DNA from: Bdellovibrionales bacterium
GTDB taxonomy: Bacteria; Pseudomonadota; Alphaproteobacteria; UBA9219
Length of the DNA: 64,000 nucleotides
Direction: 5' to 3'
NCBI GenBank assembly: GCA_041662785.1
Contig: JBAZRW010000003.1
Coordinates: 142,531 to 206,530, forward strand
Each line of letters starts with the position of its first letter. Position 1 is the first letter of the stretch. Positions 575 to 52,763 of the stretch are shown here, piece after piece. The notes under the pieces are model-generated. The model made no database searches and was not told the DNA's origin. It saw only the letters and a program-made list of their open reading frames with translations. The translations under genes and the position numbers were made by a program.

Positions 575-690
575 AAAAAAAGAAAACGGGCCCCCCGCTT
601 ACGCGGGAATGATGGGGTTTGTGTTTAGTTTTCTCCCCATAACCGTCACCCCCGCGAAAGCGGGGGGCCCGTTTGTTTTTCTTCCTACGC
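575..690. repeat. MITE-like palindromic repeat, family A copy
   Basis: AGAAAACGGG-cccccgcttacgcggg-aatga ... gtcacccccgcgaaagcgggggg-CCCGTTTGTTTTTCT: inverted terminal arms, each holding a GNRA-loop hairpin. Same architecture as copies at 19535, 20413, 30466 and 44158. Confidence 0.7.
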
Positions 691-5949: not shown

Positions 5950-5970
5950 TTCTGTCTGCTGTTGCGCTCT

Positions 5971-6031
5971 ATTGTCCGCTACCACCCGTTAGGCGTTTCC
6001 ACCAGCCGCCTTTGGGCTGATCGCCACCGGA
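5971..6031. repeat. 61-bp direct repeat, copy 1 (duplicate of the rne 3' end)
   Basis: Identical to 6917-6977; it would encode the last ~20 residues of RNase E (NPSGGDQPKGGWWKRLTGGSGQ*). Confidence 0.9.
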
Positions 6032-6035
6032 GGGG

Positions 6036-6893
6036 TTAATTATTGCTGTGTCGGTAGGGGGTGGAGACACGGGGAAAAGCATCTCGAACGGGCTCGTATT
6101 TCTTAAGAATACGATCCATCTGACCACTGTAGACAATCTCCTGCATTGCGTAATCAAGAAACTCCTTTGTTTCATAATCGCCTTTTTTGACGACCAAGGC
6201 GTTTCCAAAAATCCGTAATGGTTTGTCGATGCCGAGGGAGCGAACTGTCCCCGGATTCTTTTGCAAAAACTCGGCAGCCATGGAAGGTTCGGCAAAAATA
6301 ACATCAGCTTTCTTCGTCACAACATTCTCAAAGTTTTGTGAAAACTGAGCTGTGTCAGGTAATGAGACACGCTCTAGCTCTGAAAAATCCGCACGGGCGA
6401 TAGAATCCTCCATCGCGCCATCGACGACCGATAACCGCGCCTTTGCCGTTCTAAGATCATCAAGCGTGTGAAACCGATTATCATCTGAACGAACCCACGC
6501 TTGAATGGTGCTGTAAAAGGCTGGCTGAGAGAAGGAAGCAGCCAAAGCGCGGCTAGCATTCGGCCACAGTCCGCCGCAGAAAACATCAAAACGACCCGCA
6601 TCCAATCCGGGCATGATGTTCTGAAAACCGACTTCTTCGGCCCATCGAATGCGCAAATCGGCATTACGACCAATTTGCTCCATGATGTCATAGAAAATGC
6701 CTGACAACTTTCCTGTGTTGGGGTCGAGGCGAATATACGGGGAATAGACCAGATATCCGCAACTGATCTCATGTGATGCGCGGATATGGTGCAGCGTTGA
6801 GGCGTTTCCATTTGCGTTTTGCTCTTGCGGTTTGCATCCACCAAGGAGTGAGATGCAAACGATAACTGCAAGTGATGCTTTACGAAAACTCAT
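6036..6893 (-). CDS. solute-binding protein family 3 (amino-acid ABC-type periplasmic binding protein-like) lipoprotein, orphan
   Basis: 285 aa with signal peptide plus lipobox (LLGGC) and the SBP_bac_3 fold pattern. ~40% identical to the paralogue at 24392-25252. No permease or ATPase genes adjacent. Confidence 0.7.
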   Translation of the reverse strand: MSFRKASLAVIVCISLLGGCKPQEQNANGNASTLHHIRASHEISCGYLVYSPYIRLDPNTGKLSGIFYDIMEQIGRNADLRIRWAEEVGFQNIMPGLDAGRFDVFCGGLWPNASRALAASFSQPAFYSTIQAWVRSDDNRFHTLDDLRTAKARLSVVDGAMEDSIARADFSELERVSLPDTAQFSQNFENVVTKKADVIFAEPSMAAEFLQKNPGTVRSLGIDKPLRIFGNALVVKKGDYETKEFLDYAMQEIVYSGQMDRILKKYEPVRDAFPRVSTPYRHSNN

Positions 6894-6914: not shown

Positions 6915-9494
6915 TTATTGTCCGCTACCACCCGTTAGGCGTTTCCACCAGCCGCCTTTGGGCTGATCGCCACCGGATGGGTTAACAACTTCATAGGATG
7001 AAGAGCCTTGTCCGACGGGTCTTGGTGTTGTGTCAAGATCATGAATGCTGGTTGGAATGAACGGCTTTGGCGCAGCGGCGCGTTCATGAGAGGCGCGTGG
7101 AGGGCGGCCTCCGCCATTCCCATTCCCCGTTGCGGGTGCAGCAGCGGCTTCGCCTGCTTCACGAGGCTCCCCGCCATTGCGGCGGCGACCACCGCGACGA
7201 CCACGACGGCGACGGCTCTTGCCATCAGGATCAGTATCCTGCTCTTGCGCCGAGGGGCGAGGCGATGATTGCAAATCTTCGCCCAGATCAAGGGAGGACG
7301 TGTTCGCTTCAGGAGAAGCAAAAGGATCATCCGTGGATGCACGCGGCGTTTCACTGCCTCGCCCTCCACGACGGCTTGTGCTGGGGCGGCCCGCGCGATC
7401 ATGTTTGCGGAAACGGCTGCGGCCCCCGCGGCGGCCTGTTCCTTCGGTTGAGCCTTCCTCTTGCGAGGGTGAGGGCGAGGAGTCCCCCTCAGTCTCATCA
7501 CGGGACTCGTCATGCGAGAAGAGTGGCATATCGCGTTCGGTATCAGCAATGACCTGATCCGCGTTCACAGCCGGTTCGGCGCGGCGAGACGTGGGGCGAC
7601 CCTTGGCGCGTTCCAACTTATAACCCGGAGGCGGGATCGCGTCGTCGTTTTGAATGACGATGGTCAGACCGTAGCGCGATTCTAAGGAGCCAACTGCGTC
7701 GCGCTTGTGGTTAAGGATATAGACGGCGACGTTGGTCGGAATTTGAACCGTGATCTCATTCGTGCGTTGCTTGATGGCTTCTTCTTCAATAGCGCGAAGA
7801 ATGGATAGCGCCGCCGAGTCAGGCGAGCGAATATAGCCAGAGCCGGAGCAATGCGGGCATTTCTCAAAGTTGATTTCAATCAGGCTGGGGCGCAGACGTT
7901 GGCGCGACAGTTCCAGCAAACCGAAGGGTGAGATGCGGCCAATTTGCAAACGCGCACGGTCATTCTTCATCGATTCTTTGATGCGGCGTTCGACGGCGGC
8001 GTTATTGCGGCCATCTTCCATATCGATGAAATCGATAACGACTAGACCTGCCAGATCGCGAAGGCGCAGTTGGCGTGCGATTTCTTCGGCGGCCTCAAGA
8101 TTGGTTTTAACCGCCGTTTCCTCAATATGGCGTTCACGCGTGGCGCGGCCAGAGTTCACGTCGATGGACACCAGCGCTTCGGTCGGGTTGATGACCAAAT
8201 AGCCGCCAGAGCGTAGCTGCACAATCGGGCTGTTGAGCGTATCAATTTGGTTTTCCACTTGGAAGCGGATAAACAGCGGCGTCGGATCGTTATAGAGCTT
8301 AACCTTGTCGGCCTGATCGGGCATGACGGCGCGTATAAACTCGTGCGCTTTTTCAAAGCCCTCTTGGCCTGCAATCAAAATCTCGGCGATGTCTTGCGTG
8401 TACAAATCACGCACCGAGCGCTTGATTAGGTTCGCTTCCTCATAAATCAGCGTCGGTGCGCTGGAGGCCAGCGTTTGTTCGCGGATGCTGTCCCACATGG
8501 ACAAAAGATATTCCAAATCGCGCTGAATGTCGGGCGGATCCTGTTCCATGCCCGCCGTGCGCAAGATGACGGCCATGCCTTCGGGGATTTCCAGTTGATC
8601 CAGAATCTCCTTCATACGGCGACGGTCTTGGTGATTGGTAATTTTGCGTGAGACGCCGCCACCGTGATCTGTGTTGGGCATCAAAACACAATAGCGTCCG
8701 GCAAGTGACAGGAAGCTGGTCAAGGCTGCGCCTTTATTCCCGCGCTCTTCCTTCACAACCTGAATGAGCATGACTTGGCCGCGCTTTAGGACTTCTTGAA
8801 TCTTATAGCGGGGGCGATGCTGGCGCACGATGCGCTCGGTCACTTCGCCGCCAACGCTTTCGGGCGGCGCTTCGGGCATTGCGACCTCGGTCAGCGACCC
8901 CCCCCCGATAGCGGCGTTGCCAAAATCTGTGATCAGGCCGACGCTTGTGTCCTCATCGCCAAACGCATGAGCCAAGCTGCTAATAGGGGCAGACGACGGC
9001 TGGGCGGTTGGGGCTGCGGAAGACTCCTCCGCCAAAAGAGCTTCCTCAACGGGAGCTTCATCCTCGGTTGGAGACGTTGTGGCCTTATCTTGCGTGTAGT
9101 CTTTGTCGTCGTCATCGGCCTCATCAGGAGCGGAATCGTTCCCGTTAAGCTCAGAGTCGATATCCGTATCCTCTTGGTCTTCTTCGTCCATAGAGTCGTC
9201 GTCCGACTCTTCCTCATCATGGGGGCGATCCGCCATGGGGATGCGGAAGTAATCGGGATGGATTTCGCTGAAGGGCAAGAAGCCGTGGCGGTTGCCGCCG
9301 TACTCGACAAAAGCGGCCTGCAAGGACGGCTCAATGCGCATGACCTTGGCCAGATAGATATTGCCCCGCAAGATAGGCTTGCTGGCCAAACTAAAGTCAA
9401 GATCTTCTAATCTATTGTTATCTCTATAGCTTTCGACAATTGCTATACGAGTCTCTTCGGGATGCATGGCATCCACCAACATTCTTTTCGTCAT
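6915..9494 (-). CDS. rne: ribonuclease E
   Basis: 859 aa. N-terminal S1 domain interrupted by a long acidic insertion (DEEESDDDSMDEEDQED...), as in alphaproteobacterial RNase E. Catalytic core present (DFIDMED..., CPHCSGSGYIRS zinc-link). Arg-rich C-terminal scaffold. Confidence 0.9.
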   Translation of the reverse strand: MTKRMLVDAMHPEETRIAIVESYRDNNRLEDLDFSLASKPILRGNIYLAKVMRIEPSLQAAFVEYGGNRHGFLPFSEIHPDYFRIPMADRPHDEEESDDDSMDEEDQEDTDIDSELNGNDSAPDEADDDDKDYTQDKATTSPTEDEAPVEEALLAEESSAAPTAQPSSAPISSLAHAFGDEDTSVGLITDFGNAAIGGGSLTEVAMPEAPPESVGGEVTERIVRQHRPRYKIQEVLKRGQVMLIQVVKEERGNKGAALTSFLSLAGRYCVLMPNTDHGGGVSRKITNHQDRRRMKEILDQLEIPEGMAVILRTAGMEQDPPDIQRDLEYLLSMWDSIREQTLASSAPTLIYEEANLIKRSVRDLYTQDIAEILIAGQEGFEKAHEFIRAVMPDQADKVKLYNDPTPLFIRFQVENQIDTLNSPIVQLRSGGYLVINPTEALVSIDVNSGRATRERHIEETAVKTNLEAAEEIARQLRLRDLAGLVVIDFIDMEDGRNNAAVERRIKESMKNDRARLQIGRISPFGLLELSRQRLRPSLIEINFEKCPHCSGSGYIRSPDSAALSILRAIEEEAIKQRTNEITVQIPTNVAVYILNHKRDAVGSLESRYGLTIVIQNDDAIPPPGYKLERAKGRPTSRRAEPAVNADQVIADTERDMPLFSHDESRDETEGDSSPSPSQEEGSTEGTGRRGGRSRFRKHDRAGRPSTSRRGGRGSETPRASTDDPFASPEANTSSLDLGEDLQSSPRPSAQEQDTDPDGKSRRRRGRRGGRRRNGGEPREAGEAAAAPATGNGNGGGRPPRASHERAAAPKPFIPTSIHDLDTTPRPVGQGSSSYEVVNPSGGDQPKGGWWKRLTGGSGQ
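6917..6977. repeat. 61-bp direct repeat, copy 2 (native rne 3' end)
   Basis: Perfect match to 5971-6031. Confidence 0.9.
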
Positions 9495-14402: not shown

Positions 14403-14693
14403 ATGACTGGCGGATATTTTTATATTCTTGCCAGTCAGAGAAACGGGACACTTTATGTTGGCGTTACGAACGATTTAGCAAGACGCGTGGCGGAACATAA
14501 GGAAGGCAAGATAAAAGGGTTTTCGACGCGTTACGGGATTAAGACGCTGGTTTATTACGAAGTTTATGATCGCATTCTTGATGCGATTGCTCGTGAAAAA
14601 GGCGTCAAGGAATGGAAACGCGCTTGGAAGTTGGAATTGATCGAGAGCACGAATCCGGAATGGAGGGATTTGTATCTTGATCTAAACAAATAG
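14403..14693 (+). CDS. free-standing GIY-YIG nuclease (YhbQ/UPF0213-like)
   Basis: 96 aa, GYFYILASQRNGTLYVGVTNDLARRVAEH = GIY-(10)-YVG motif. Lies 12 nt after the rpoB stop with a TATAAT directly upstream of the ATG. Confidence 0.8.
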   Translation: MTGGYFYILASQRNGTLYVGVTNDLARRVAEHKEGKIKGFSTRYGIKTLVYYEVYDRILDAIAREKGVKEWKRAWKLELIESTNPEWRDLYLDLNK

Positions 14694-14694
14694 C

Positions 14695-14800
14695 GTCATT
14701 CCGGCGCAAGCCGGAATCCAGCGCCGAGTGTCCACGAGGCGTATGAGTCATAAGCGCCGCAGACGCGGCGCACTGGATCCCGACTTTCGTCGGGATGACG
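14695..14800. repeat. MITE-like palindromic repeat, family B copy (inverted relative to 39297)
   Basis: GTCATTCCGGCGCAAGCCGGAATCCAGC ... GCACTGGATCCCGACTTTCGTCGGGATGAC. The core is the reverse complement of the core at 39330-39380. Confidence 0.75.
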
Positions 14801-14877: not shown

Positions 14878-19421
<4,544 letters not shown>

Positions 19422-19451
19422 GTTTGAATAGATAGACGTCGTTATCAAGAA

Positions 19452-19488
19452 GGCGGAAAAGGACAGGATTCTTTTTCCGCCTTTTTTG
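19452..19488 (+). terminator. rho-independent terminator after rpoC
   Basis: GGCGGAAAAGG...CTTTTTCCGCC hairpin followed by TTTTTTG. Confidence 0.7.
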
Positions 19489-19534: not shown

Positions 19535-19665
19535 AAAGAAAAAAGAAAACGGGATCCCCGCTTTCGCGGGGATGACGATAGCAGGATGAAATTAAACACA
19601 AAACCCGTCATTCCCGCGCAAGCGGGAATCCCGTTTGTTTTCTTTCTCAACGAGTCGTTTCATGA
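19535..19665. repeat. MITE-like palindromic repeat, family A copy
   Basis: AGAAAACGGGATCCCCGCTTTCGCGGGGATGACG - atagcaggatgaaattaaacacaaaac - CGTCATTCCCGCGCAAGCGGGAATCCCGTTTGTTTTCT. Arms are about 38 nt and inverted. Confidence 0.8.
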
Positions 19666-19794
19666 GCCGTTTGGTATTACTCACAAGCCTTAACGCTTGA
19701 AAGTAATAAAATTATGCCTCAAAAAGTCAGAAACAAGCTACAATGATTGAGCAATATGAGTGTTCAAACGATTTTGAAAGAGAGGAATTTTATC

Positions 19795-20409
19795 ATGAAC
19801 ATCATTCAAGAAGATAAGGCGCCAACCGCTTTTCAAAAAGCTGCCAACGCGGTCACCCGTGTGGTGGAAGTTATTGGTTGGGATTTTACAACTATTGCTG
19901 CCGCGACAGGAGCAACTGCTGCTCTGACGGGAAGCGCTGCTGCTTCATGCGTTGCTATGTGTGTCGCCTCATTTTTTACTGATACTGGGCCTTATAATGA
20001 TAGCTTTAGTCGGTATCTGATTAAAGCGAGTCTTTGTATTGGCGGTTTCATTTTTGCTGTGGGGGGAACACTCTTTAGTTCTTCCGCTGAAATGACTCGA
20101 AAAGCTGGAGAGGCGGCGCTTAATCAGGTTATTGAAACGGGCGCACCAAGCGTTTCTGTCCCCCTATCAACAAGAGATTTCATGACAGGCTTTGGTAAGA
20201 AGATTTCTGTGACGGGGACGGCTGAAACATTACGTCAAAATGACTCAGCGACATTTCTTCTGGCATCAGTCAACGGCAAACCGCACTATTATTTTATTCA
20301 CAGAAATGCTGATGGCTCTTTAGTAAGAGATTTCTCCGGCCGTCCCAAAAGAGAAGAAATCCCCTTGCGTGCGCACGATTACAAGTATTCGACCCACGAT
20401 CCAAGATAG
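19795..20409 (+). CDS. hypothetical membrane-associated protein (low GC, MITE-flanked)
   Basis: ORF 19747-20409 trimmed to the ATG with GAGAGGA RBS. Two hydrophobic segments; no recognisable domain. Confidence 0.45.
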   Translation: MNIIQEDKAPTAFQKAANAVTRVVEVIGWDFTTIAAATGATAALTGSAAASCVAMCVASFFTDTGPYNDSFSRYLIKASLCIGGFIFAVGGTLFSSSAEMTRKAGEAALNQVIETGAPSVSVPLSTRDFMTGFGKKISVTGTAETLRQNDSATFLLASVNGKPHYYFIHRNADGSLVRDFSGRPKREEIPLRAHDYKYSTHDPR

Positions 20410-20412
20410 ATG

Positions 20413-20580
20413 GAAAGAAACCAAACGGGATGCCCGCTTTCCCCCTACGCCCTTCGGGCTTCGGCGCGACAGGTCGCGGGCATGACGATAGAGGGTTAGA
20501 TTTAAACACATATCCTGTCATTCCCGCCCCGTATCAAGTACGGGGCAGGCTCCAGCGGGAATCCAGTTTGTTTTCTATCT
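20413..20580. repeat. MITE-like repeat, family A copy with nested inserts in both arm hairpins
   Basis: Arms AAACGGGATGCCCGC[37-nt insert]CGCGGGCATGACG and GTCATTCCCGC[insert]CGGGAATCCAGTTTGTTTTCT around the shared core atagagggttagatttaaacaca. Confidence 0.75.
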
Positions 20581-20622
20581 TAATGAGTCACGTCATCGTG
20601 CCATTTGTATAAAATAGGTGGT

Positions 20623-21090
20623 TTACCCCTGTGGTGGGTCAGAAAAACGAAGGCCAACGCCAAGGCGGTTCCAACTGTTGATTCCGCCGACGGCAAGCGT
20701 CAAAAAGACGATTTCTTTTTCGGAAAAGTTCTTTTTTAGATTTTCATAAAGGGAATCTGATGCTCCTTGCGTGGCGACGTTTGTTAGGGACTCTGTCCAA
20801 GCTAACGCGGCGCGTTCTCTTTCCGAGAAAACTTCGGCATCATGCCAAACCGCCGTTAAATCTATTTTTGTCGCGTCCACACCCAATTTGCGGGCCATCA
20901 TTAGGTGATGTTTGACGCAAAAAGTGCAGCCGTTGATTTGCGAAGCTCTCAGTTTGACAAGCTCCAAAAGGTCTTTGCCTAAAACACCGGATTCATCGAT
21001 AGCCTTGACAACGGACATCATGGCCCCCAGCGCCTCTGGCGCCAGTTTGCAAAAAACATCGAAATCAATGCGGGCATTGGGGGAGGACAT
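20623..21090 (-). CDS. carboxymuconolactone decarboxylase / AhpD-like family protein
   Basis: 155 aa; AhpD-core CxxC..H motif (NGCTFCVKHH). Confidence 0.7.
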   Translation of the reverse strand: MSSPNARIDFDVFCKLAPEALGAMMSVVKAIDESGVLGKDLLELVKLRASQINGCTFCVKHHLMMARKLGVDATKIDLTAVWHDAEVFSERERAALAWTESLTNVATQGASDSLYENLKKNFSEKEIVFLTLAVGGINSWNRLGVGLRFSDPPQG

Positions 21091-22811: not shown

Positions 22812-22885
22812 TGGAGCGGGTGAAGGGAATCGAACCCTCATAGCCAGCTTGGAAGGCTGGTGCTTTACCACTAAGCTACACCCGC
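22812..22885 (-). tRNA. tRNA-Gly (anticodon TCC)
   Basis: Reverse complement GCGGGTGTAGCTTAGTGGTAAAGCACCAGCCTTCCAAGCTGGCTATGAGGGTTCGATTCCCTTCACCCGCTCCA folds as a cloverleaf with anticodon-loop UCC. Confidence 0.85.
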
Positions 22886-22935
22886 TCATGGGTGGTTGTT
22901 CTGTATCATGCCGTTTTTACGGCGGCAAGCCGCCG

Positions 22936-23040
22936 TGGGTGAAGGGAATGATCAAAAACAGGCGGAACGCGCCTGTTTTTGCCCCTTCGGGCGCCCCCGC
23001 TTCGCGGGATGCGTCCAAAATGCTTTCGCATTTTGTCGAT
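22936..23040. repeat. 105-bp segment B between 100-bp direct repeats: tRNA-Gly 3'-end fragment + GATCAAAAAC + palindromes
   Basis: TGGGTGAAGGGAAT (matches the tRNA-Gly 3' part) - GATCAAAAAC - CAGGCG/CGCCTG hairpin - TTTTTGCCC - cccgcTTCGgcggg and aaatgcTTTCgcattt hairpins. Confidence 0.6.
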
Positions 23041-23090
23041 CCTCATAGCCAGCTTGGAAGGCTGGTGCTTTACCACTAAGCTACACCCGC
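23041..23090 (-). pseudogene. truncated duplicate of tRNA-Gly (positions 1-50 only)
   Basis: 50 nt identical to the 5' half of the tRNA at 22836-22885, followed by an identical 50-bp upstream region (23091-23140 = 22886-22935); the T-arm and acceptor 3' strand are missing. Confidence 0.8.
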
Positions 23091-23152
23091 TCATGGGTGG
23101 TTGTTCTGTATCATGCCGTTTTTACGGCGGCAAGCCGCCGTTAATTCCTGCC

Positions 23153-23298
23153 GTCATCCCCGCGAAAGCGGGGATCCAGCTGCGAGCGATAGCGAGCGTG
23201 TGAGTCGAACAAGACAACAAACAGCACTTCCCTAGACCTTTTTTGAGTCACGTGGCCCGCAGACGCGGGCCGCTGGATCCCCGCTTTCGCGGGGATGA
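23153..23298. repeat. MITE-like palindromic repeat, family B copy
   Basis: GTCATCCCCGCGAAAGCGGGGATCCAGC ... GCTGGATCCCCGCTTTCGCGGGGATGAC perfect inverted termini around a ~90-bp core. Confidence 0.8.
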
Positions 23299-23512
23299 CT
23301 GGAATAGGTAACAATAAGGCATCATCCTCTATCACGAGCCTTTTATTACAGCAAGATAGAAGTGTAAGAAAGGTATAAAATCCTCTTTCTTTTTCTGTAC
23401 AAATGGGGTAAAAAGCACCGTTCCCAACAAATCAATAAGCTTTGTCCGACGTGATCGCCGGACGGGCGATTCTGGGTTCAAGGACAGTTCTTAATGATTG
23501 TATGAGGCTTTT

Positions 23513-24391: not shown

Positions 24392-25252
24392 GTGAAAACT
24401 GTTGGTCTGTTCGTTGCCGCCATTCTAATCGCGTTATCGTCCGTTTGGCTTCACGATAAAAATGTGCACACTGTCAATGCAACGCAAGAGACAGCCTATG
24501 ATCGCGTGTTGCACACCAAGACTTTGCGGTGTGGATACGCTGATTGGCCTCCTCATGGACTTGTAAAAGATCCGAATACGGGAAAAATTTCCGGCGTCAT
24601 GTACGATATCCTTGAAGAGATTGGACGTCGTTTGAGTCTTAAGATTGACTGGAGCGAGAATACGGGGTGGAGCAATATTGTAAGCAGTCTTCAATCAAAG
24701 CGCATTGACGTTTTCTGCGCTGGTTTGTGGGTGAATGCCGAGCGTGGTCGTTCCTTGACATATTCTATGCCACTTTTTTTCAACGCATCGTTCCCCTTTG
24801 TCAGAATCGATGATCATCGGTTTGATAAGGACATCAAACGTGCCGATTCATCGGACATTCGTTTTTCTTCCATAGAGGGTGAGTTATCGGATGCCACAGC
24901 ACGCCTTCATTTCCCGAAAGCGCAGAAAATACCGGTGAGCCAGATGTTGCAGGCTTCCGAAGCCCTGAACAACATTGCAGTTAACAAAGCGGATATTATT
25001 ATTCTGGATTACAGCATGGGGAAAGGGTTCATAGATTCTAACCCTTCTACCTTGCGTAAATTAGGGGACAAACCTTTTCAGGTTTTCCAGAACTCCCTTG
25101 GCTTTGATATTCATGAAAACACGCTGCGCGATATGATTAACAATGCCCTTAATGAGATGCACAATCAGGGGGTTATTGCCAATATTGTTGCGAAACACAG
25201 TAACGATCCCAGTGAGTTTATTCCAGTCGCTCCGTCTTATTTGCAGCCGTAG
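24392..25252 (+). CDS. solute-binding protein family 3, orphan paralogue inserted between nusG and rplK
   Basis: 286 aa, GTG start with AAGGAG RBS, signal peptide. About 40% identical to the 6036-6893 product (shared CGY...DPNTGK.SG..YDI.E.IG......I.W.E..G......L.....DVFC.GLW). Confidence 0.7.
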   Translation: MKTVGLFVAAILIALSSVWLHDKNVHTVNATQETAYDRVLHTKTLRCGYADWPPHGLVKDPNTGKISGVMYDILEEIGRRLSLKIDWSENTGWSNIVSSLQSKRIDVFCAGLWVNAERGRSLTYSMPLFFNASFPFVRIDDHRFDKDIKRADSSDIRFSSIEGELSDATARLHFPKAQKIPVSQMLQASEALNNIAVNKADIIILDYSMGKGFIDSNPSTLRKLGDKPFQVFQNSLGFDIHENTLRDMINNALNEMHNQGVIANIVAKHSNDPSEFIPVAPSYLQP

Positions 25253-25441: not shown

Positions 25442-25523
25442 CGTCACTCCCGCGTAAGCGGGAGTCCCGTTTGTTTTAACAAGTAAACGGGATCCCCGCT
25501 TTCGCGGGGATGACGAAAATGGA
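25442..25523. repeat. family A arm-pair in outward (rearranged) orientation
   Basis: CGTCACTCCCGCGTAAGCGGGAGTCCCGTTTGTTTT-aacaagt-AAACGGGATCCCCGCTTTCGCGGGGATGACG. Confidence 0.6.
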
Positions 25524-25696
25524 AAAGATTGGAAACAATCGATAAGATTCTTCAAGAAGTTGTGGTTTAAGGGGGATGAAAATCCTTCGAATACAATGGT
25601 TGTCATGGATGGCTTTTGGCTTTGGCCAAAGGTTGTTTATGGCGTTGTGAAACGTTGGCGTTTAGTCGGTTCTTGTGTGCCCGTCTATACTTTAGC

Positions 25697-25850
25697 GTCA
25701 TTCCGGCGAAAGCCGGAATCCAGAACTTTTATGCCGCGCAGACGCGCGGCGCTGGATCCCGCTTTCCCGTCTACGCTGCTCCGCAGCTTCGCCGGGCTAA
25801 GCTTCAGCCCTGCGAAGCTCGTCAGAGCGAAGCAGGGTCAGCGGGATGAC
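25697..25850. repeat. MITE-like repeat, family B copy with internal insert
   Basis: GTCATTCCGGCGAAAGCCGGAATCCAG ... GCTGGATCCCGCTTTCCCGTCTACGCTGC ... CAGCGGGATGACG. Confidence 0.6.
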
Positions 25851-25932
25851 GTGATGGAATAAGGGCGCGTCCGATCTAACTAAACTCCAGAATCAAACAT
25901 CCAACCGATAGGGGTTGGAAGGAGAGAGCAAA

Positions 25933-27235: not shown

Positions 27236-27530
27236 ACAGCCCTAAGAGCGTGGGATAGTGCCACTCAGTCGCCTTCCGCTCAAAGTTAATGCGGTAAGCC
27301 TTTGAAATATAATAAAACTGACTCGATTTTTTGGCATGGCTAACCAATTGATTTTACATGGTTTTATGAACTTCGTCCGATTTTGGATCGCCAAAAGCAA
27401 AAAAAACGCAGGATTGGGGGCGACTCTTTTCGTCATCCCGCACCCCTCTACGCCCTTTGGGCTTCGCGGGGCAGGCGAAGCCTTGCGCGAAGGCGGGACG
27501 ATGATGCGGGACCTAGGGGACTGGGCGACG
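27236..27530. repeat. ~300-bp repeat, family C copy 1
   Basis: Shares about 230 nt of interrupted similarity with 52133-52440 (AGCGTGGrATAGTGCCACTCAGT..CCTTCCGCTCAAAGTTAA ... GCTAACCAATTGATT ... CCGATTTTGGATyGCCAAAAGCAAAAAA ... CGTCATCCCsgaCCCCTCTrCGCCCTTyGGGCTTCGCGGGGCAGGCrAAGC). Confidence 0.7.
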
Positions 27531-27638
27531 AATGAATGATAGAGAGGGCGGAGAGAGCGGCTTGATCCCAGATCAACTTTCTTTCGTCTCACAACGGTGA
27601 GCCGAAAAGAAAGTTTTCTGGGATGGCGGCAGGTGGCC

Positions 27639-30465: not shown

Positions 30466-30585
30466 TAGAGAAAAAAGAAAATGGATGCCAGCCTTCGCTG
30501 GCATGACAAGGGGTAGGAGGTAAAGTTAATCCTAATCCGTCATCCCCGCGCAGGCGGGGATCCCATTTTTTAATTTTTCCACTGC
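30466..30585. repeat. MITE-like repeat, family A variant copy
   Basis: AGAAAATGGATGCCAGCCTTCGCTGGCATGACAA - core ggggtaggaggtaaagttaatcc - GTCATCCCCGCGCAGGCGGGGATCCCATTTTTTAATTTTT. Confidence 0.6.
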
Positions 30586-34744: not shown

Positions 34745-34855
34745 CTGTCCCATTCTTCGTCATCCCGCACCCCTCTACGCCCTTCGGGCTTCGCGGGGCA
34801 GGCGAAGCGACGCGTGAACATCGCGTAGATGCGGGATGACGAAATAGTGAATGGC
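34745..34855. repeat. hairpin module shared with family C repeats
   Basis: CGTCATCCCGC-acccctctacgcccttcgggcttcgcggggcaggcgaagc...-GCGGGATGACG; the same inner sequence is present at 27432 and 52336. Confidence 0.65.
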
Positions 34856-39244: not shown

Positions 39245-39296
39245 TGTGGGACTCCTGATTGATGTTTGCAAAGCTAATTCGTCTGTTTTAACTTGT

Positions 39297-39401
39297 GTCA
39301 TCCCCGCGAAGGCGGGGATCCAGCTGCGCGGCGTCTGCCGCGCCTAAGACTCATACGCCTCGCGGACGCTCGGCGCTGGATTCCCGCCTTCGCGGGAATG
39401 A
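39297..39401. repeat. MITE-like palindromic repeat, family B copy
   Basis: GTCATCCCCGCGAAGGCGGGGATCCAGC-49 nt core-GCTGGATTCCCGCCTTCGCGGGAATGAC. Confidence 0.8.
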
Positions 39402-39465
39402 CAAAACGGGTAAGGACTAACGCCATCGCCCGTCTTGGCAGAAAATCGATCTTAATGAAATAATC

Positions 39466-44157: not shown

Positions 44158-44300
44158 AATAAAAAAAACGGGATCCCCGCTTTGCCCTTTCGCCCGCCGC
44201 AAGAGCGGCGGGACGAGGGCGCGGGGATGACGATAGAGGGTAAAACTTAAACAAAAACCCGTCATGCCCGTGAAAACGGGCATCCCGTTTGTTTTCTTTT
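44158..44300. repeat. MITE-like repeat, family A copy with nested insert in left arm
   Basis: AAAACGGGATCCCCGC[tttgccctttcgcccgccgcaagagcggcgggacgagggc]GCGGGGATGACG - atagagggtaaaacttaaacaaaaaccc - GTCATGCCCGTGAAAACGGGCATCCCGTTTGTTTTCT. Confidence 0.75.
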
Positions 44301-52132: not shown

Positions 52133-52440
52133 TCGAGCAGAGCGTGGAATAGTGCCACTCAGTATCCTTCCGCTCAAAGTTAACGTCGTAAGTCTTTGAT
52201 ATACAACGAAACTGACTCGAATTTGGGTCTATGCTAACCAATTGATTCTAAAGGGCTTTGTCAACTTCGCCCGATTTTGGATTGCCAAAAGCAAAAAATC
52301 AGGAGTCAGGGGGTGAGGTTCAGAGTTGGTCTCTCCTCTTTCGTCATCCCCGACCCCTCTGCGCCCTTCGGGCTTCGCGGGGCAGGCAAAGCGACGCAGC
52401 AGCGGAGCGGAGATACAGGATACATCTTCTGAAATGACCA
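52133..52440. repeat. ~300-bp repeat, family C copy 2
   Basis: Matches 27236-27530 in several blocks; ends in a CGTCATCCC...GCAGGCAAAGC hairpin module. Confidence 0.7.
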
Positions 52441-52763
52441 AGAGCGACTCAGGTAGAAATTTCAGGTGATGGATCCCGCCTTCCGGCGGGATGACGGGAG
52501 GGGGGCTGGCATCCCTTTTTTTTGAATCATTTTATCTGACGTAGGTTATAATGGGTTACGCAAGAGGTCTATTTCACAAGATCGCTAATCTCTCTAAAAT
52601 TTTCAATTTTCAAATTGACTTCCATTTTCATTCATTCTATGCCACGGCAGCGTTGCACACCGCGTTCAAGGTGGGCCTCGTCGTGAATCCTTCTTAACGT
52701 ATGCAATGAAGGTATTCGCTTCGCAAAACCAACTTGCTCGTCTACATAACGATGGATCCTTTC

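Follow-up and report, generated by a model that had tools for sequence, protein, structure and literature searches.

Inverted pairs of CGTC-1/SRM hairpins as probable recognition sites of a Ssn-type GIY-YIG nuclease in an alphaproteobacterial genome

The 64,000 bp stretch of contig JBAZRW010000003.1 analysed here (assembly GCA_041662785.1, positions 142,531-206,530; hereafter the window) contains, shortly downstream of rpoC, a compact inverted-repeat element that recurs after other genes, and the question it raises is what kind of element this is and what acts upon it. Repeat finding and alignment give five copies and one permuted pair of the element, Family A, and the arm pattern is matched eight times in the window at up to three mismatches, against 0.00 in 100 shuffles. 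A preliminary description proposed a new family of miniature inverted-repeat transposable elements (MITEs), with the reservation that an exact match to a catalogued repeat family would remove the novelty. All of the copies that it located are recovered (the focal one as 19540-19650; Table 1) and the arm sequences that it quoted are correct, but its list is incomplete, with further hairpin dimers and large-loop variants present elsewhere in the window. Moreover, comparison of sequence and anatomy identifies the arms as a repeat catalogued as CGTC-1 REP, and also known as dRS3, NTS or SRM, and not as a new repeat family, so that the reservation applies. What the description overlooked is the likely partner enzyme, Ssn, which is encoded within the window by a gene abutting a repeat dimer. 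We consider it probable that Family A is an inverted pair of SRM units, and that these are recognition sites of a Ssn module.

The arms are examples of a short hairpin unit, which we defined for scanning as a tag, an 8 bp stem, a 4 nt loop and a tail. There are sixteen canonical units in the window, all with these stem and loop lengths, and their consensus is CGTC-ATCCCCGC-GAAA-GCGGGGAT-CCA. The tag is CGTC in twelve of the units, TGTC in three and AGTC in one, the stem starts with AT in fourteen and with AC in two, and the tail is CCA in nine and CCC in seven. Among the unpaired bases, G2, T3 and C4 ahead of the stem and C25 and C26 after it are invariant, as are the central CC/GG of the stem and the G and A at loop positions 1 and 3. 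Every one of the sixteen shows the anatomy that defines the CGTC-1 REPs, namely a CGTC tag (with variants TGTC and CCTC), an 8 bp stem with A,T first, a 4 nt loop and a 3 nt tail that CCA fits (PMC3733652). The CGTC-1 repeats were catalogued in 2013 by Di Nocera, De Gregorio and Rocco, and were equated with Neisseria dRS3 and Rickettsia RPE-6; they are found mostly in Alphaproteobacteria, with Micavibrio aeruginosavorus among the hosts, and their habit is to form dimers 3′ of open reading frames (ORFs), between convergent or same-direction genes and occasionally with large loops (PMC3733652). The window repeats share the unit anatomy, the dimers, the placing 3′ of ORFs and the occasional large loops, but differ in three respects: about half of the tails are CCC, tags-inward pairs are as frequent as tags-outward pairs ('TT' being rare for CGTC in PMC3733652), and the units that make up Family A have a T-rich 3′ extension and a conserved 28 nt core.

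In 2025 the hairpin was redefined as NTS (CGTCATTCCCGCGMAVGCGGGAATCYRG), or more generally SRM, the single-stranded DNA (ssDNA) target of the nuclease Ssn (Chenal et al. 2025, PMC11893778). The SRM search pattern, HGTCWYN(0-2)YYVSBRHN(0-5)WNVSBRGN(0-2)RNCYNB (PMC11893778), has thirteen matches in the window, compared with a mean of 0.34 and a maximum of four in 100 dinucleotide shuffles. The N. meningitidis NTS consensus differs by one mismatch each from the right arm of the focal copy (19606-19633) and from a unit at 39377-39403; the palindrome ATTCCC-N8-GGGAAT is exact at 19610-19629 and 39380-39399, and the relaxed pattern ATYCCC-N8-GGGRAT has eight sites. This dRS3 palindrome is shared with the Neisseria dRS3/NIME repeats (Parkhill 2000; Bentley 2007, PMC1797815), although only isolated dimers are seen here and none of the long dRS3/RS-element arrays of the NIMEs. 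Similarly, the CGTC-1 unit is common to Rickettsia RPE-6 (PMC3733652), but no copy in the window is inside a coding sequence, as many RPEs are. The hairpin crosses phyla, and we find it in more than 120 viral contigs and one Pseudoxanthomonas locus, and likewise in Neisseria, Azospirillum, Tistrella and Sphingopyxis replicons. Of 110 adjacent unit pairs in the viral loci, 40 have their tags inward, with spacers clustering at 20-31 nt, and the geometry of Family A is therefore generic for this repeat. Searches of Rfam at the gathering threshold and at E values up to 1 returned only tRNAs and sub-threshold generic long-hairpin (miRNA precursor) models. A Neisseria origin of the window, suggested by the dRS3-like sequence, was considered and rejected; there is no DNA uptake sequence of any of seven dialects, and RpoC (15234-19421) is alphaproteobacterial, being 80% identical to that of Azospirillum and 88-90% identical to those of alphaproteobacterial metagenome-assembled genomes (MAGs).

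The stems vary considerably in sequence (e.g. ATTCCGGC, ATCCCGAC, ATGCCAGC, ATGCCCGT, ACTCCCGC and ATCCCGCC, among others), and a change is always compensated. Over the sixteen canonical units 99.2% of cells are paired, both sides are altered in five of the eight pairs, and the covariation score is 0.445, compared with 0.128 in shuffles (none of 500 reaches 0.445) and no more than 0.11 in slid registers; the co-varying stems of the preliminary description are thus well founded. Because the changes are compensated within an arm, and the two arms differ from each other in every Family A copy, it is the local hairpin that is maintained and not a long duplex between the arms. The loop variants reported previously (GAAA, GCAA, GAAG and GTAA) are also all seen, but the loop is G-N-A-N on the CGTC-tagged strand rather than uniformly GNRA: GAAA is present in eight units, GAAG in three, GCAA in two, and GTAA, GGAA and GCAG in one each, such that twelve of the sixteen loops are GNRA, and in any one transcript GNRA is borne by only one arm of a pair.

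The candidate partner is a small gene between rpoB and rpoC (Table 1), whose product has GIY-YIG (PF01541) as its only domain (E 5e-16) and shares 56% identity with the 94-residue N. gonorrhoeae SsnA ortholog in an ungapped alignment of 88 residues (E 5e-39). Its residues Y7, Y18 and E65 align ungapped with the catalytic Y6, Y17 and E64 of SsnA, mutation of which abolished SsnA activity (PMC11893778). Matches in NCBIfam are confined to a sub-threshold group I intron endonuclease model, and those in the PDB are weak ones to UPF0213. Ssn is described as a 94-residue single-domain GIY-YIG nuclease, the gene for which is typically flanked by repeats; it binds the hairpin solely as ssDNA and in the tagged orientation, and it cuts a few nucleotides 5′ of the tag (PMC11893778). 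Recognition depends on both sequence and structure, no base matters more for binding than the cytosine that immediately follows the palindrome, and in Neisseria the enzyme lowers the integration of transforming DNA that carries the repeat (PMC11893778). The window shares with this system the SRM pattern, the layout of a gene with flanking repeats, and the conserved Y, Y and E residues, and the bases that are invariant here are those that are experimentally critical there. It differs in that the host is an uncultured alphaproteobacterium and not Neisseria or Wolbachia, and that units are solely 3′ of ssn. Since the invariant unpaired GTC and CC are the bases found experimentally to determine cleavage and binding of ssDNA by Ssn, the more likely object of selection is a site of DNA-protein contact rather than a GNRA hairpin in RNA.

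The association of gene and repeat is close. The SRM dimer downstream of ssn begins with its CGTC tag at the base immediately after the stop codon, and no unit precedes the gene, the end of rpoB being 12 nt upstream; the gonococcal ssnA locus has nine NTS units in 1.4 kb. The 843 bp gap between rpoB and rpoC in the window contains ssn, the dimer and a 109-codon ORF (14878-15207), whereas in three relatives with 89-90% RpoC identity (L081-L083) the gap is 50-60 bp without ssn, and there is no unit in the 15-24 kb examined. In two other relatives, L209 (9970-10514) and L211 (8749-9841), ssn is also between rpoB and rpoC with SRM dimers adjoining, accompanied in L211 by an ORF of 131 codons instead of 109. 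The gene has different neighbours in L207, where a dimer and ssn are between trmD and rplS, and in L210, with a unit-ssn-unit arrangement between ssb and dnaE; units are on both sides of the gene in L210 and L211. The rpoB-ssn-rpoC arrangement is either ancestral and subsequently lost, or the product of repeated insertion into a highly expressed operon. Among about 120 viral loci that were fetched solely for the hairpin, nine carry a homolog of the window Ssn (by tblastn), and in all nine the units are close to the gene and mostly on both sides of it. In contrast, the same search found no homolog in any of 80 hairpin-free rpoC loci, a negative background of distant loci from an RpoC search (no more than 80% RpoC identity) that is essentially without units.

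The most likely mode of action is that when the DNA becomes single-stranded, during replication or repair or as incoming DNA, each hairpin would fold and be bound by Ssn, either the product of 14403-14693 or that of a paralogous gene at another genomic location, which would then cut the tagged strand a few nucleotides 5′ of the tag. In Family A the predicted cuts would fall inside the core, at opposite core ends on the two strands. The repeats would be dispersed Ssn recognition sites, probably proliferated satellites of the ssn module, and the units may have spread together with that module or through it. As a secondary effect, a GC-rich hairpin followed by a T-rich run would have the look of a bidirectional intrinsic terminator, and this would account for the retention of copies immediately downstream of genes. 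We infer that the window Ssn or a paralog acts on the A-type units of Family A, that the units spread in this way, and that the copies are tolerated or serve as bidirectional terminators. Several observations weigh against this scheme. The units beside ssn are of a different sub-type (stem ATTCCGGC and tail CCA) from those of Family A (stem ATCCCCGC or ATTCCCGC and tail CCC) and, recognition being sequence-dependent, the A-type units may have a partner other than the window Ssn. What has been demonstrated for Ssn is cutting and not transposition, and a biological role is established solely for natural transformation in Neisseria (PMC11893778). As regards the terminator look, the T-run does not begin until 4 nt beyond the local stem, and rpoC has its own canonical terminator-like hairpin (19446-19486) upstream of the focal copy.

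As the repeat itself is already catalogued, the identification is of value mainly for annotation, and the hairpins and the 96-codon ORF between rpoB and rpoC should be annotated as an SRM/Ssn system, and not as a new MITE and a hypothetical protein. It adds an uncultured alphaproteobacterial lineage to this nuclease and repeat system, with ssn inside the rpoB-rpoC operon in three related genomes, and Family A is a compact, orientation-defined composite suited to testing Ssn-driven proliferation and a double role as terminator.

Table 1. Positions of Family A copies, other hairpin units and associated genes in the window.
Feature	Position	Strand	Remarks
Focal Family A copy	19535-19650	+	114 nt 3′ of rpoC stop
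Focal copy, outer A-tract	19535-19550
Focal copy, left unit	19551-19577	-	CGTC-ATCCCCGC-GAAA-GCGGGGAT-CCC
Focal copy, AT-rich core	19578-19605		28 nt
Focal copy, right unit	19606-19632	+	CGTC-ATTCCCGC-GCAA-GCGGGAAT-CCC
Focal copy, outer T-tract	19633-19650
Family A copy	577-690	-	Whole copy inverted; one arm degenerate; between convergent lpdA-like (stop 541) and Bax1-I (stop 789) genes
Family A copy	20413-20585	+	Both hairpin loops enlarged (38 and 27 nt); 4 nt after orphan ORF stop; convergent genes either side
Family A copy	30471-30577	+	Core diverged; 3′ of epimerase gene (stop 30449)
Family A copy	44159-44299	+	40 nt loop insert in left arm; convergent genes (stops 44117, 44398)
Permuted A-type pair	25442-25515		Tags outward
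ssn homolog	14403-14693	+	96-aa single-domain GIY-YIG nuclease; between rpoB (stop 14390) and rpoC (start 15234)
B-type SRM dimer	14694-14800		Directly 3′ of ssn; tags outward; stems ATTCCGGC / ATCCCGAC
B-type SRM dimer	23152-23300		Beside tRNA-Gly partial duplication
B-type SRM dimer	39296-39403		Downstream of murJ
B-type unit paired with large-loop unit	25696-25851		B-type unit 25696-25722; 76 nt loop in partner
Single canonical unit	52470-52496	-	CGTC-ATCCCGCC-GGAA-GGCGGGAT-CCA
Large-loop variant	34758-34841		CGTCATCCCGCA-[60 nt]-TGCGGGATGACG, tag at both ends; between convergent purK and SNF2-helicase genes
Orphan low-GC ORF	19795-20409	+	204 aa from ATG; bracketed by two same-orientation Family A copies

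The units fall into two sub-families. In the A-type units, which are those of Family A, the tail runs on as a T-rich CCC-GTTTGTTTTCTTT, and in the B-type units it is CCA-GCGCCGAG (CCA-GCGCCG) and the dimers have tags outward; six dimers of canonical units were counted in the window. A Family A copy consists of two A-type units with their tags inward, a spacer of 28-29 nt and the T-rich extensions outward, and the focal copy reads on the plus strand as an A-rich run, GGGATCCCCGC-TTTC-GCGGGGATGACG, the core, CGTCATTCCCGC-GCAA-GCGGGAATCCCG and a T-rich run. In the permuted pair the two T-rich 3′ extensions meet as a palindromic spacer, CCCGTTTGTTTTAACAAGTAAACGGG. All five Family A copies are heterodimers of two different arm types, and the order of arm types and core is the same in all of them, including the inverted copy at 577. 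The core, previously presented as common to the copies, is well kept in three (19578-19605, 20487-20515 and 44232-44259), but it is only weakly recognisable in copy 30471, and in copy 577 it is reversed, with the arm types swapped likewise, because the whole copy is inverted. Elsewhere, a Family-A-like composite is present between convergent genes in the related MAG L207 (18565-18690), and extensions related to the T-rich one, of the form CCA-GTTTGAAAGCTTTT, are found in L210 and L211. The core pattern has only three matches in the JGI metagenomes, which are chance ones in AT-rich contigs without arms. Family A is thus a lineage-specific composite, characterised by the core, the T-rich 3′ extension and the fixed pairing of two arm types.

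Three of the copies carry inserts of 27-40 nt inside a hairpin loop, which accounts for the 130-170 bp size range of Family A. Expanded loops are not restricted to Family A, and in total there are seven units of this type besides the sixteen canonical ones (20425-20483, 20516-20566, 25764-25851, 27431-27520, 34758-34841, 44170-44232 and 52340-52421), in which 27-76 nt of nested GC-rich hairpin replaces the 4 nt loop and the string CCCTCTACGCCCTTCGGGCTTCGCGGGGCAGGC is common to several. The variant at 34758-34841 has related copies at 27431-27520 and 52340-52421. These inserts could represent a second small repeat that either inserts into the loops or grows out of them.

The fixed arm types and core order in all copies point to Family A being copied as one unit. 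There is also about 35 nt of extra similarity past the T-tract in three copies (19579-19720, 20586-20625 and 691-725; e.g. ACGAGTCGTTTCATGAGCCGTTTGG), and the copied unit may therefore exceed the arms and core in some of them. An extension of the Ssn-target interpretation is that the composite of two SRM units, core and outward T-tracts is self-propagating, being copied whole and spreading via Ssn cuts at both core ends on opposite strands. We regard this as doubtful, but if true, Ssn would be the long-missing mobilising enzyme of CGTC-type REPs, and Family A would be a bidirectional terminator that is mobile and is tolerated by the host where genes end.

An alternative is that Family A is a module acting at the RNA level, as a bidirectional intrinsic terminator, a 3′-end stabiliser or a small RNA, and that RNA folding is the reason for its conservation. 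The placement invites this explanation. As the preliminary description had it, the copies are all intergenic; all are 3′ of genes, with three of the five between convergent genes, and the L207 composite is similarly placed; more broadly, of the thirteen intergenic regions with units, five are convergent, seven are between genes in the same direction and one is between tRNA genes. The focal copy has the layout of an A-tract, a long hairpin and a T-tract, its predicted fold is -59 kcal/mol as RNA (z -8.3) and -35 kcal/mol as DNA (z -6.7) relative to shuffles, and a terminator scan flags it on both strands. In four of the five cases, the interval from the stop codon to the element is free of any other terminator-like hairpin. 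The terminator-like look suggested earlier is therefore real, although the distance of the T-run from the stem detracts from it. However, whichever way a unit is oriented with respect to transcription, its strand-specific unpaired tag and tail are retained, the same hairpin is present in B-type dimers without a T-tract, the arms of a copy are not kept mutually complementary, the focal copy comes after the separate rpoC terminator, and Rfam offers no family beyond the generic models noted above. Conservation primarily for RNA folding thus seems unlikely, and a terminator function is compatible with the recognition-site interpretation as a secondary role. Correia elements are also small terminator-like inverted repeats at gene ends. 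Their 26 nt ends are unrelated to the present arms, and they have a TA duplication.

The hairpins could instead mark recombination or integration hot spots that are targeted by a site-specific recombinase, a hairpin-targeting insertion sequence (IS) or a phage, and through which foreign genes enter, but we view this as improbable. There are low-GC genes beside units within conserved operons, such as ssn with the 109-codon ORF between rpoB and rpoC, a solute-binding protein gene between nusG and rplK and the orphan ORF bracketed by two copies, and several hairpin loops have inserts of 27-76 nt; in addition, dRS3 is a known integration target of filamentous phage in Neisseria (PMC1797815). Set against this, genes for recombinases or phages were not found in the window, the link to low-GC genes is based on a handful of cases, and the loop inserts are nested GC hairpins and not recognisable mobile elements, variable loops being known for CGTC-1 (PMC3733652). 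The earlier report of orphan genes bracketed by copies holds for the ORF at 19795-20409. Its GC3 (the GC content at third codon positions) is 0.39, compared with 0.65 for rpoBC, and it matches nothing but itself among 1.84 billion representative proteins (E<1e-10).

The classical MITE interpretation, in which Family A is a deletion derivative of an IS with the ~38 nt arms as its terminal inverted repeats and the transposase encoded elsewhere, is very improbable. The elements are small, intergenic and dispersed in several copies, they have an inverted-repeat architecture, and the composite seems to be copied as a unit with arm and core order fixed even in the inverted copy 577. However, the arms are a phylum-spanning hairpin motif and not IS-specific ends, and the core pattern is absent from the JGI metagenomes save for the three chance matches. 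No consistent target-site duplication was found, there being none at 44159 and flanking direct repeats elsewhere of at best 4-5 nt with inconsistent offsets, where A/T-rich ends blur the boundaries. A parent IS with matching terminal inverted repeats is absent from the window and five related loci, and, in agreement with the preliminary description, there is no transposase or transposase domain among the approximately 59 main ORFs of the window, which are housekeeping genes.

Finally, mobilisation as a REPIN, for which a RAYT (an IS200/IS605-type tyrosine transposase) would be encoded by a single gene in another part of the genome, can be largely dismissed, since even though two inverted REP-like hairpins that share a conserved 5′ tetranucleotide make a REPIN layout, the tag is CGTC and not GTAG, there is no Y1 transposase in the window, no RAYT or other IS200-type transposase gene flanked by CGTC units was found in a survey of more than 80 species (PMC3733652), and the gene flanked by units here and in relatives is ssn. 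The likeness to REPIN-RAYT systems and to E. coli REP/BIME is that short tagged hairpins form intergenic inverted doublets, which are able to fold as a single long hairpin, and that they are associated with a single-copy gene for an enzyme acting on ssDNA hairpins. That enzyme is a GIY-YIG nuclease here and not a HUH tyrosine transposase.

The repeats are also rich in GANTC, the CcrM methylation motif of Alphaproteobacteria, which has a density of 8.0 per kb inside repeat regions and 2.4 per kb outside (a 3.4-fold difference). One reason is that the stem end and the critical tail C together read GAATC or GAGTC, and another is that GAGTC is also conserved in the flanks and spacers; where a unit has GGGGAT-CC, the motif is GATC in place of GANTC.

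There are several other repeats in the window. Two copies of a non-coding segment of about 260 bp, 84% identical to each other, are present at 27245-27500, after rplA, and at 52139-52400, after atpC, and a large-loop hairpin variant follows each copy; the segment has no Rfam match, and an overlapping ORF (27242-27592) has no Pfam match. A perfect 101 bp duplication (22836-22936 and 23041-23141) takes in the region upstream of tRNA-Gly(TCC) together with the 5′ portion of the tRNA, and the truncated tRNA copy (23021-23090; Rfam 29.1 bits) is beside the B-type dimer at 23152-23300; this looks like a scar of integration or excision at a tRNA. A 70 bp direct repeat of 99% identity (5970-6039 and 6916-6985) brackets a gene for a solute-binding protein at 6036-6893, and one of the repeat copies forms the 3′ end of the RNase E gene. 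The gene for a paralog of this protein with 32% identity (24392-25252; GC content 0.46) is inserted between nusG and rplK, with hairpin dimers after it. Both of the solute-binding protein genes look like recent gene insertions.

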